In this document: positions 18,845 to 33,265 of the stretch, piece by piece
Layout of the letters: each line of letters starts with the position of its first letter
Position numbering within the stretch: position 1 is the first letter of the stretch
Assembly (NCBI GenBank): GCA_015067385.1
Contig: SVMP01000002.1
Span: forward strand, 1-43,612
Origin: Oscillospiraceae bacterium
GTDB taxonomy: Bacteria; Bacillota; Clostridia; Oscillospirales; UBA644
DNA: 43,612 nucleotides
Reading direction: 5' to 3'
The notes under the pieces: model-generated
What the model was told of the DNA's origin: nothing
Databases searched by the model: none
What the model saw: only the letters and a program-made list of their open reading frames with translations
Made by a program: the position numbers and the translations under genes

Positions 18845-19058
18845 GCGTGATACTCTTAACGGAGTATCACGCAACTCTATTCGCCTACGGCGAGTGATAT
18901 TGCGGCAACGGTTACGTTGCAAATGCAGTGATATTTGGCTTTCAGCCAAGTTTTATTTGCTTCGCAAGTTGTTTGCGAATAGAATATCACGAAACCGATA
19001 GGTTTCATATCACTTTTGCAAAGCGAAAATATCACGCTGACTTTAGTCAGCATATCAC
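18845..19058. repeat. Heptamer-punctuated hairpin array, copy 1
   Basis: GTGATAC/GTGATAT at 18847, 18894 and 18928. GTATCAC/ATATCAC at 18864, 18984, 19007, 19029 and 19052. Between them lie 8 different short hairpins: 18845-18872, 18881-18893, 18905-18920, 18935-18949, 18961-18979, 18991-19006, 19014-19028 and 19036-19051. Confidence 0.8.
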
Positions 19059-19074
19059 TTAGCAGACAAAAGAA

Positions 19075-19117
19075 AGAGAAGACTCGTTTACATACGAATC
19101 TTCTCTTTTCTGTTATT
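19075..19117 (+). terminator. Intrinsic terminator closing the FAD-oxidoreductase / array-1 transcript
   Basis: AGAGAAGACTCGT (19075-19087) pairs with ACGAATCTTCTCT (19094-19106) at 12 of 13 bp. TTTCTGTTATT follows. Confidence 0.7.
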
Positions 19118-32417: not shown

Positions 32418-32454
32418 ATTTGTACCTCCCGAGGATAGAATTTTGGTTAATATA

Positions 32455-32483
32455 AATATATCACACCAAAACACAAAAAACAA
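32455..32483 (-). promoter_or_regulatory. Candidate promoter of the 31827-32417 gene
   Basis: On the minus strand: TTGTTT (32483-32478), 17-bp spacer, TGaTATATT (32463-32455). Confidence 0.45.
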
Positions 32484-32486
32484 GAC

Positions 32487-32515
32487 TTGTAATTTGTATT
32501 TATTTATGGTATAAT
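32487..32515 (+). promoter_or_regulatory. Orphan sigma-A type promoter facing an untranslated region
   Basis: TTGTAA at 32487-32492, 17-bp spacer, TGgTATAAT at 32507-32515. Confidence 0.5.
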
Positions 32516-32521
32516 ATTAAT

Positions 32522-32613
32522 GTACCAAAACTCTTGTAGGAGTAATCTCATAACACAAATTCTATAATAGTGTCTTTATTTTCCGGAAGCCGAAAAGGTT
32601 TTCGGATTTTTTT
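32522..32613 (+). ncRNA. Candidate small RNA of about 90 nt (promoter to terminator, no credible ORF)
   Basis: Bounded by the 32487-32515 promoter and a hairpin (TCCGGAA 32582-32588 / TTTCGGA 32600-32606) followed by seven T residues (32607-32613). Confidence 0.3.
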
Positions 32614-32651
32614 AATTATAACACATAATTTTCTGTTTGGCAAGTAAAAAA

Positions 32652-32680
32652 ATCAAGTCTTACGACTTGATTTGATTTTG
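32652..32680. terminator. Second hairpin terminator, bidirectional in appearance
   Basis: ATCAAGTC (32652-32659) pairs with GACTTGAT (32664-32671). It is preceded by A7 and followed by TTGATTTT. Confidence 0.45.
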
Positions 32681-32780: not shown

Positions 32781-32974
32781 ATTCGAATTTTCGAATAGTT
32801 TTTAGTGATATTCTGTCTTTGACAGAGTGATATTTTCTCTTCGAGAAAGTGATATTGAAACCTTACGGTTTCAGTAATATTATATTCGCCTTAAAACTCG
32901 CGAAGCGAATATCACTTGAACTTTAGTTCAAATATAACTGCGTAGCAATAACACTCGCCGCATGCGAATATAAC
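32781..32974. repeat. Heptamer-punctuated hairpin array, copy 2
   Basis: GTGATAT at 32805, 32827 and 32849, and GTAATAT at 32874. ATATCAC at 32909, ATATAAC at 32932, ATAACAC at 32948 and ATATAAC at 32968. Perfect hairpins lie between them at 32781-32796, 32812-32826, 32834-32848, 32856-32873, 32882-32912, 32916-32931, 32939-32947 and 32955-32967. Confidence 0.8.
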
Positions 32975-32976
32975 TG

Positions 32977-33007
32977 AAAAACCGACTTGTCGAAACAAGT
33001 CGGTTTT
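32977..33007. terminator. Bidirectional intrinsic terminator (tRNA operon on the minus strand, array 2 on the plus strand)
   Basis: AAAACCGACTTGT (32978-32990) pairs with ACAAGTCGGTTTT (32995-33007) around loop CGAA. Confidence 0.8.
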
Positions 33008-33008
33008 C

Positions 33009-33093
33009 TGGTGGGGGAAGGTGGATTCGGACCACCGAAGTCACTGACAACAGATTTACAGTCTGCCCCCTTTGGCCGCTCGGGAATTCCCCC
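33009..33093 (-). tRNA. tRNA-Tyr (anticodon GTA), class II with long variable arm, CCA encoded
   Basis: The reverse complement reads GGGGGAATTCCCGAGCGGCCAAAGGGGGCAGACTGTAAATCTGT...GGTCCGAATCCACCTTCCCCCACCA. The anticodon loop is CTGTAAA. Confidence 0.9.
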
Positions 33094-33126: not shown

Positions 33127-33201
33127 TGGAGCTGGTGAACGGAGTCGAACCATCAACCTGCTGATTACAAATCAGCTGCTCTGCCATTGAGCCACACCAG
33201 C
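33127..33201 (-). tRNA. tRNA-Thr (anticodon TGT), CCA encoded
   Basis: The reverse complement reads GCTGGTGTGGCTCAATGGCAGAGCAGCTGATTTGTAATCAGCAGGTTGATGGTTCGACTCCGTTCACCAGCTCCA. It has a 7-bp acceptor stem and anticodon loop TTTGTAA. Confidence 0.9.
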
Positions 33202-33236: not shown

Positions 33237-33265
33237 ATTATATCACACAAACTCCGATTTGTCAA
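33237..33265 (-). promoter_or_regulatory. sigma-A type promoter of the tRNA-Thr/tRNA-Tyr unit
   Basis: On the minus strand: TTGACA (33265-33260), 17-bp spacer, TGaTATAAT (33245-33237). Confidence 0.6.

Follow-up and report, generated by a model that had tools for sequence, protein, structure and literature searches.

A mirror-image double form of the Gut-1 motif beside a tRNA operon of an Oscillospiraceae bacterium

Background

The Gut-1 RNA motif was described in 2010 from 43 representatives, with no organism and no function assigned, and was characterized as "human gut only, no sequenced organism" (Weinberg et al. 2010, Genome Biol 11:R31, PMC2864571). On the basis of covariation, it was graded as certainly an RNA (PMC2864571). 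In a literature search, no other paper was found to mention Gut-1, and the motif, catalogued in Rfam as RF01706, has been an orphan since 2010, known only from gut metagenomes. We have analyzed a heptamer-hairpin element, array 2, and its paralogous copy, array 1, on a contig of an Oscillospiraceae bacterium (GenBank assembly GCA_015067385.1, contig SVMP01000002.1, positions 1 to 43,612; the whole stretch of 43,612 nucleotides is referred to as the window). Array 2 stands beside a convergent tRNA operon. It belongs to the Gut-1 family and is almost certainly a member in a double form with a real single-strand fold. Because the motif is already catalogued, the finding is a further, below-threshold copy of a known family.

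Repetitive extragenic palindromes and bacterial interspersed mosaic elements (REP/BIME) of enterobacteria are short hairpins in alternating orientation that occupy extragenic 3' regions between convergent genes and act either way. Their roles include mRNA 3'-end stabilization and protein binding, and they are linked to the REP-associated tyrosine transposase (RAYT). Protein-titrating small RNAs of the CsrB/RsmZ type are built from many hairpins that carry a repeated short motif, GGA, in their loops, followed by an intrinsic terminator. The omega/ParB ribbon-helix-helix protein of pSM19035 binds contiguous arrays of the heptad 5'-WATCACW-3' (PMC9499535).

An initial annotation of array 2, made from the nucleotide letters alone, described its heptamers, hairpins and terminator, and offered three readings: a long branched fold of RNA or single-stranded DNA (ssDNA), protein-binding arrays on double-stranded DNA (dsDNA), or a miniature inverted-repeat transposable element (MITE). 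It was correct in observation and largely sound in its structural reasoning; membership in Gut-1 was overlooked.

Results

Array 2 belongs to the Gut-1 family

A default Rfam scan returned two tRNAs only. With E-value reporting, both halves of array 2 matched RF01706 over model positions 1-77, the left half at 32803-32885 on the plus strand (45.6 bits, E 2.8e-8) and the right half at 32904-32976 on the minus strand (34.3 bits, E 2.1e-5). Array 1 matched at 46.9 bits on the minus strand and at 34.1 bits on the plus strand, with the whole model covered. The gathering cut-off of RF01706 is 50 bits, an operational threshold and not a biological feature, and the default scan misses the window copies because their best scores, 45.6 and 46.9, fall under it. 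They do so because the right-half heptamers are degenerate, as the initial annotation had remarked. Copies in other genomes exceed the cut-off (L016, 63.9 bits; L033, 63.0; L014, 60.3; L065, 56.5), and L011 exceeds it on opposite strands (59.2 and 52.0 bits).

Heptamers were also compared with RUGAnAU, the consensus heptamer of the published Gut-1 alignment. The left half of array 2 carries GUGAUAU three times and GUAAUAU once, with three hairpins between. On the other strand, the right half reads GUUAUAU, GUGUUAU, GUUAUAU and GUGAUAU, again with hairpins. Members of the GTGAAAT type also occur in the Gut-1 family. In two rows of the seed alignment, BAAZ01025322.1 and BAAZ01000095.1, a tRNA end is followed by a terminator, CAGUUAUAUUCGCC-loop-GGCGA, GUGAUAU hairpins, GGCGAAUAUA and AUAUCAC hairpins, an arrangement that is the reverse complement of the consensus of the 67 full-length elements described below.

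Parts of array 2

The left (F) half of array 2 occupies 32805-32880 on the plus strand, as delimited by sequence, by its Rfam match and by hairpin covariation across the 67 elements. Its three GTGATAT heptamers start at 32805, 32827 and 32849, in 22-bp phase, and the fourth heptamer, GTAATAT, at 32874; hairpins hp1 (32812-32826), hp2 (32834-32848) and hp3 (32856-32873) fill the intervals. The 5' strand of a long-range helix, P_L, follows at 32881-32889 (TATATTCGC) and pairs with the 3' strand at 32964-32972 (GCGAATATA), both in the minimum-free-energy fold and with RNAalifold. Between the left half and the right lie, at 32890-32908, an A-rich joiner, CTTAAAAC, and the central hairpin hpC (alignments A2 and A3), hpC being TCGC-GAA-GCGA at 32898-32908. 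The right (R) half, at 32909-32974, is likewise delimited by sequence, its Rfam match and covariation. It contains the linkers ATATCAC (32909), ATATAAC (32932), ATAACAC (32948) and ATATAAC (32968), along with hpD (32916-32931), hpE (TGC-GTA-GCA, 32939-32947) and a local hairpin, TCGC..GCGA (32955-32967), whose 3' arm together with ATATA makes up the 3' strand of P_L. All these parts are given on the plus strand.

When read and located by script, every heptamer position of the initial annotation proved correct, the 22-bp phase included, and so did its perfect hairpins, a different one in each interval (TCTGTC/GACAGA, TTTCTC/GAGAAA, TGAAACC/GGTTTCA, TTGAAC/GTTCAA, TGC/GCA and TCGC/GCGA). The central longer hairpin that it placed at 32882-32912 can indeed pair, but this pairing is specific to the window; the central hairpin conserved in the family is that at 32898-32908.

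The window contains 17 copies of GTGATAT where 4.6 are expected, and none of 100 shuffles had as many. Three heptamers with gaps of 13-20 nt are found three times, all in the two arrays, against 0.00 in shuffles. Folding of both strands, a check that had been proposed for array 2, gave a z-score of about -7 on either strand, and over both arrays and both strands the z-scores ranged from -7 to -11.

The family across genomes

A scan of 185,579 species-representative genomes for GTGATAT-N13-20-GTGATAT-N13-20-GTGATAT returned at least 120 loci, and all family counts in this study come from among the matches listed. About 100 of these loci have hairpin spacers. Nearly all are from metagenome-assembled genomes (MAGs) of gut and rumen Oscillospirales, and the hosts comprise Acutalibacteraceae, Oscillospiraceae, Ruminococcus and records labelled "Clostridia" or "Eubacteriales" only. 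The few matches in other phyla are ordinary tandem repeats. A full-length regular expression selected 35 loci, which led through a covariance model to 67 full-length elements, scoring 107-199 bits on one strand and only 25-61 on its complement. The strand that scores higher in this family model is termed canonical.

On the canonical strand, four GTGATAT copies, 22-26 nt apart and separated by three variable hairpins, are followed by T-N-TATTCGCC, the A-rich joiner AAAACT and hpC. After hpC come ATATCAC, hpD, ATATCAC, hpE (TGC-GNA-GCA), ATAT(C/A)AC, TCGCC-loop-GGCGAATA-N'-AACTG and a long hairpin. This last hairpin takes one of two forms. In one, it is a bidirectional terminator, and the 3' end of a convergent tRNA comes next; in the other, it is a covarying hairpin of 11-13 bp with a T-run about 12 nt further on and then the stop codon of a convergent gene. 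Of the three left-half hairpins, hp3 has the greatest length and the most conserved sequence. At about 175 nt, the common form is over twice as long as the Rfam model. Heptamers and hairpins are conserved in the family, with a heptamer spacing of 22-26 nt in the architecture common to the 67 elements.

The number of units in an array ranges from 3 to 20. The array of 20 heptamer-hairpin units (L118, 2490-2952) has a super-period of 68 nt and lies between regulator and sigma-factor genes. Other forms of the family (L086, 1942-2190; L040, 3573-3808; L078, 7348-7550) comprise tandem duplications of a whole single unit and a second convergent two-unit type, which is without the long-range helix and in which each unit ends in a hairpin followed by GTT. 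No partner gene was found in common beside the largest arrays (L118 and L086), whose neighbors encode a response-regulator-like protein, a sigma factor, an SDR, a nuclease, an esterase and a WYL protein. Contigs often end inside an element or at its edge, as at L002, L006, L016, L028, L043, L079, L080, L083, L110 and L111 among many MAG loci, which suggests that the elements break short-read assemblies through their repeated heptamers or hairpins.

Covariation of the hairpins and of a long-range helix

The hairpins are a selected single-strand structure. In the consensus structure of the 67 elements, made up of hp1 to hp3, P_L, hpC, hpD and hpE, 97.6% of cells are paired, and 26 of the 44 pairs change on both sides. 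Covariation amounts to 0.412 against 0.098 in shuffles, of which none in 500 was as high, and it does not exceed 0.058 when the partners are slid. In hpC, pairs change on both sides in 23-24 sequences. P_L, which covaries across the family, pairs T-N-TATTCGC with GCGAATA-N'-A over 9-10 bp; its N/N' pair (columns 114/282) is A-U in 27 elements, U-A in 19 and C-G in 15, and is broken in three. Several independent double changes in P_L are likely because the N/N' states are spread over several subtypes of the flanking hairpins. The local hairpin TCGCC/GGCGA, for which support is weak, would use the same GGCGA as P_L and so competes with it. Possible U.G and A-U closing pairs within the left-half heptamers are almost never swapped for C-G or U-A.

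The heptamers do not pair with one another. On paper, the forward copies complement the reverse ones, and some such pairs appear in the RNAfold structure of array 1, so that a ladder of four-way junctions built from GUGAUAU:AUAUCAC helices can be drawn. This ladder was tested and rejected, and its probability is practically nil: covariation of the heptamers is 0.024 against 0.021 in shuffles, their central positions are unpaired in 9-56 of about 65 sequences, depending on the pair, and the helices would cross the covarying P_L, with which they are topologically incompatible. The view in the initial annotation that the heptamer is a sequence motif, and not a strand of heptamer-heptamer helices, is therefore borne out. 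Its branched fold survives as a selected single-strand fold, in which a long-range helix encloses the right half and no ladder of heptamer stems is formed. Kissing contacts of U-rich left-half loops with GNA loops in the right half were also considered and rejected, with no covariation in any of 12 hairpin pairs and a best p of 0.02, uncorrected.

Spacers that are conserved only in their pairing would be left unexplained by protein-binding arrays on dsDNA alone, and this reading from the initial annotation is not supported on that ground. In one version of it, the heptamers would be operator- or centromere-like dsDNA sites akin to the heptads bound by omega/ParB. TATCACT within A-TATCAC-T fits WATCACW exactly, a resemblance of 12 bits that was found post hoc. 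The plasmid arrays contain heptads in both direct and inverted orientation, extend over promoters and require four or more repeats (PMC9499535); in array 2, the four forward and four reverse copies extend over a promoter-like site. However, omega needs gapless heptads (PMC9499535), whereas the heptamers of the family are 22-26 bp apart at variable distances. The right-half copies are degenerate at core positions, and no ribbon-helix-helix or ParA gene is present among the neighbors scanned. We regard sites of this sort as very improbable.

Array 1 and its orientation

Array 1 (18845-19108, minus strand) was delimited with family model R1, its Rfam matches and sequence. In order on the minus strand, it consists of a terminator (19108-19073), four GTGATAT copies (19058-18984), the 5' strand of P_L (18983-18975), a right half that extends to 18876, and an extra hairpin (18873-18845). 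The distance from there to the stop codon (18821) of a convergent FAD-oxidoreductase gene is 24 nt. The family model scores array 1 at 157.6 bits on the minus strand versus 30.2 on the plus strand, and array 2 at 184.5 bits on the plus strand versus 46.2 on the minus strand. Because the best-scoring strands are opposite, array 1 is inverted relative to array 2. The initial annotation had assigned the same layout and orientation to both. The coarse layout on the plus strand is the same, each array reading as a GTGATAT-type half, an ATATCAC-type half and a terminator, but by homology the orientation is inverted.

The convergent gene at array 1, and likewise at related loci, has just one strong intrinsic terminator downstream of it, and this sits past the element; for this reason the element is very likely transcribed there. 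At array-1-type loci (window minus strand 18845-18834, L059, L084, L012 and others), a conserved T-run occurs about 12 nt past the extra hairpin of 11-13 bp, where it abuts the stop codons of unrelated convergent genes encoding 122-663 amino acids. The extra hairpin and this T-run were rejected as a terminator, since a T-run about 12 nt past the stem is not canonical.

Inheritance of the element

The element is old, vertically inherited and under selection, and is not a recent mobile element. Orthologous loci keep it. For array 2 these are L011 along with L016 and L046, the last two of which have its upstream flank in common; for array 1 they are L014, L065 and L073, all of which share its flanks. 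Comparison of synteny at the tRNA-Thr/tRNA-Tyr locus, as had been suggested for array 2, showed that L011 carries the element in the same tRNA arrangement. The array 1 region is identical in four further metagenome contigs (L241-L244) that encode an identical FAD-oxidoreductase protein. No presence/absence polymorphism with target-site duplications was seen in this comparison; absence alleles in distant relatives were not searched for.

These loci bear directly on the MITE-like element, or remnant of one, that had been proposed for array 2. The two multi-site halves do have mirror symmetry, several copies occur per genome, some of them beside tRNA genes, and whole units are tandemly duplicated in some genomes. 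Yet copies within one genome share only their heptamers and linkers, and every stem differs, by compensatory changes. No direct repeat flanks the element (AGTTTTTA on the left versus TGAAAAAC on the right), and no transposase was found among the neighbors scanned. A phage or plasmid origin was also rejected: on viral contigs, two of 120 pattern matches are true members and the rest are coding tandem repeats, and no match was found on plasmids. In view of the compensatory differences between paralogues, the conserved orthologous loci, the near-absence from viruses and the absence of plasmid matches, a MITE is exceedingly improbable.

Position at the ends of convergent transcription units

Array 2 sits between bidirectional terminators at 32650-32673 and 32977-33008. 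The latter is an intrinsic terminator of 14 pairs, found by terminator scan, and is common to the element and the convergent tRNA-Thr/tRNA-Tyr operon, as the initial annotation had held. It directly adjoins tRNA-Tyr (33009-33093), beyond which lie tRNA-Thr (33127-33201) and the promoter of the operon (33265-33237, from the promoter scan), all on the minus strand; both tRNAs were called with ARAGORN and Rfam. It is also the sole full terminator that the scan detected in array 2. Two internal segments, 32809-32829 and 32853-32876, were flagged weakly, and the internal hairpins fail the intrinsic-terminator test, with GUGAUAU or AUAUCAC following them and not a U-tract.

The same position recurs in the family. 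Of the 29 cases with a called open reading frame (ORF) on the right-half side, 23 have the 3' end of a convergent gene facing the element there. A convergent tRNA ends 28-34 nt away in 13 of the 67 elements, with seven tRNA species represented, and one element is at the end of an rRNA operon; the arrangement ACTGAAAAA-stem-TTTTTT-tRNA 3' end is seen in 13 of the 67. Of 50 elements, 45 have a terminator on at least one side, and most of these terminators are bidirectional. The T-run on the tRNA side of the shared terminators is as expected if transcripts also come from the element side.

A putative promoter-like site, TTGAAA-17-TATTAT, was found within array 2 (32855-32883, plus strand; 10 of 12 matches in the promoter scan). 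Its -35 box (TTGAAA or TTGAAG in the family) consists of the last T of heptamer 3 and the 5' arm of hp3, and its -10 box (TATTAT, TATTTT or TATTCT) of heptamer 4 and the start of P_L. About 46 of 62 members have the same geometry, with a spacer of 16-18 nt; TTG starts the -35 box in about 38 of 60, and a TG extension is present in 56 of 60. Given this geometry, the right half could be a stand-alone small RNA of about 120 nt that starts near 32890 and ends at 32977-33008, with four GNA- or GNRA-capped hairpins joined by AUAUCAC. The left half would then be DNA upstream of the promoter, or a second, opposite RNA. The greater length and conservation of hp3, the purine-loop sense of the right half on the promoter's strand, the long hairpin or terminator that always follows the right half, and the terminators that insulate array 2 on both sides all fit a small RNA. 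On the other side of the balance, the 5' strand of P_L (32881-32889) lies inside or upstream of the -10 box and hence outside the transcript, the -10 boxes (TATTNT) are weak, a -10-like heptamer is lacking in GTGAAAT-type Gut-1 members, and the left half has a matching promoter on its other strand in only 2 of 62 members. A small RNA of this extent, with its left half so construed, appears improbable to us.

Copies of GTGATAT outside the arrays are parts of extended -10 boxes (TGTGATATAAT; 33237-33265 and 32458-32464, both minus strand). One isolated copy is in a perfect tRNA promoter, TTGACA-17-TATAAT, and the other is in the promoter region of the gene starting at 32423. Since the isolated copies belong to extended -10 boxes, the heptamer coincides with the extended -10 sequence of the organism.

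Strand and nucleic acid

We moderately favor RNA over DNA as the acting form of the element. The following observations weigh against the boundary RNA favored below, and several concern the strand on which it would be read. First, in 339 heptamer-flanked hairpins, 2020 Watson-Crick pairs stand against 10 G.T and 20 A.C oppositions in the GTGATAT sense (alongside 26 pyrimidine-pyrimidine and three purine-purine oppositions), which is unusual for an RNA of one strand; in the 35 full-length elements, G.U and A.C oppositions number 8 versus 11, a split that does not choose between the strands. The mismatches of the 339 hairpins point to the ATATCAC-sense strand but flip between halves, and the G.U and (tandem) G.A mismatches, mostly in left-half hairpins, agree with that strand. 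Second, loops in the GTGATAT sense begin with T in 79% (TTC, TTT, TGC, TTAC and TTGC), and the corresponding loops on the opposite strand (GAA, AAA, GCA, GTAA and GCAA) are GNA triloops and GNRA tetraloops. On one strand of the double element, the loops of the left half are T-rich (46-50% T) and those of the right half A/G-rich (GAA, GTA and GTAA), so that the purine (GNA/GNRA) loops belong to the plus strand in the right half but to the minus strand in the left. Because the asymmetry of loops and mismatches flips between the halves, no single transcript has the "sense" throughout. P_L, in contrast, requires one strand that spans both halves. Third, the published orientation of Gut-1 (GUGAAAU sense) is opposite to the strand that loop composition favors. 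Fourth, no orientation bias of the units was found with respect to neighboring genes, directional terminators or the majority coding strand. The genes that flank single units are co-oriented in six cases, both opposite in six, divergent in seven and convergent in two, and counts for the majority coding strand, a replication proxy of low power, are 11 versus 15 for double elements and 3 versus 7 for single units. Finally, the promoter scan found nothing upstream of heptamer 1, the only good promoter-like site being the internal one, and an RNA started there would lack the 5' strand of P_L because the -10 box overlaps its start.

In the RF01706 consensus, the loops are UUGC, UUC and UUC, with pyrimidine-pyrimidine mismatches, and the opposite strand has GCAA, GAA and GAA, with tandem G.A. 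The strand assigned to Gut-1 in Rfam may need re-examination, judging by these loops and mismatches.

Much of this would be accommodated if the element worked as ssDNA or on both strands. DNA hairpins would then form on the lagging-strand template, on a strand displaced by transcription or as small cruciforms, with the heptamers read by a DNA-binding or hairpin-binding protein, and orientation relative to genes would be irrelevant. Stems that are almost only Watson-Crick, without the wobble preference of a single RNA strand, the flip of the "sense" strand between halves, the lack of orientation bias to genes or terminators, and terminators that shield the element on both sides are all in keeping with DNA. 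So are the loops, which are mostly C-GNA-G triloops: d(GCGNAGC) forms exceptionally stable DNA mini-hairpins, and the invariant TGC-GNA-GCA of hpE contains GCGAAGC or GCGTAGC. However, the nearest-neighbor energy of hpE, -0.6 kcal/mol with both RNA and DNA models, does not separate the two, stems of 3-7 bp are too short for cruciform extrusion, and the counts for the majority coding strand, low in power as they are, show no bias. Array 1 and its relatives are very likely transcribed, and Weinberg et al. rated the motif certainly an RNA. Action as ssDNA or on both strands is, on these grounds, unlikely.

Other features of the window

The window has a G+C content of 42% and contains his and aro operons and a gene for an SLH protein, which together point to a Firmicutes chromosome. 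An ORF of 547 amino acids at 1238-2881 on the plus strand has a HisZ-like domain (PF13393) and a HisG ATP phosphoribosyltransferase domain (PF01634), and looks like a HisZ-HisG fusion. Upstream of array 2, a strong promoter (TTGTAA-17-TATAAT with TG) and a terminator about 90 nt on (32582-32606) mark 32487-32613 on the plus strand as a candidate small RNA or leader; an Rfam search of this candidate returned no family, the best match being RsaOG (20.9 bits, E 0.75). A minus-strand promoter at 32643-32615 would give the gene at 32423 a 5' untranslated region of about 185 nt.

Discussion

The explanation that best covers the observations as a whole is a folded RNA at the boundary between transcription units, in which invariant unpaired heptamers would serve as recognition sites for a putative factor. 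Our confidence in it is evenly poised. The element would act as an RNA between transcription units, transcribed either towards the adjacent terminator or by read-through from a neighbor. Its fold is shown by the analysis: on a single strand of about 175 nt, three tandem hairpins spaced by GUGAUAU are followed by P_L, within which small hairpins with GNA or GNRA loops meet in a junction, linked through AUAUCAC-like heptamers, and the bidirectional terminator comes directly after. The hairpins would keep the heptamers single-stranded and evenly spaced, thereby creating a multivalent landing site for the putative sequence-specific factor, and the run of hairpins could double as a stable 3'-end or insulator module. 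This specific mechanism, as a boundary or as a platform for a factor, is put forward tentatively and falls somewhat short of even confidence.

Because the halves mirror each other, transcripts from either side would carry the same kind of array. Gut-1 might be something other than a simple small RNA of one strand: a dyad-symmetric boundary element, its halves optimized on opposite strands, might be imagined to act on transcripts or ssDNA from both directions, although we consider this unlikely. The putative heptamer-reading factor would then handle terminator read-through where convergent genes or tRNA or rRNA operons end, a role that we rate no higher. If true, it would make the element a new kind of bidirectional insulator, specific to Oscillospirales. 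The strand paradox is the only route to a surprising result here.

For the orphan motif, the present analysis adds a chromosomal placement in Oscillospirales of gut and rumen (Acutalibacteraceae, Oscillospiraceae and Ruminococcus), a double form of about 175 nt with a covarying long-range helix and a mirror-image second half, and a location where convergent genes and tRNA or rRNA operons end. It also adds a concrete doubt about the functional strand and makes the motif directly testable. The Rfam threshold misses degenerate copies such as both window arrays.

Compared with Gut-1 as published, the elements share tandem short hairpins that are split by RUGAnAU and backed by covariation, the order CAGUUAUAUUCGCC..GGCGA GUGAUAU of some seed rows, a tRNA 3' end followed by a terminator, and an origin in gut Clostridia. 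They differ in that the published model is one half of 77 nt, corresponding to the right half, on the strand opposite to that on which the full element scores best. The published description has no inverted second half, P_L or extra 3' hairpin, nor does it place the motif in Oscillospirales. Like REP/BIME, the elements are clusters of hairpins in alternating orientation between convergent genes. REP stems, however, are conserved in sequence within a genome, whereas here the linkers alone are conserved and the stems change in a compensatory manner; RAYT genes were not searched for. Like the omega/ParB arrays, they have 7-bp repeats containing ATCAC, in direct and inverted copies, at least four in number and overlapping promoters or, here, a promoter-like site, in Firmicutes. 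Those arrays are contiguous on dsDNA, whereas the Gut-1 heptads are split by hairpin spacers of 15-18 nt, are chromosomal and occupy the same loci across species. Like CsrB/RsmZ-type RNAs, the elements present a repeated short motif on multiple hairpins with a terminator at the end, but the Gut-1 motif is the linker between the hairpins and occurs in both orientations.

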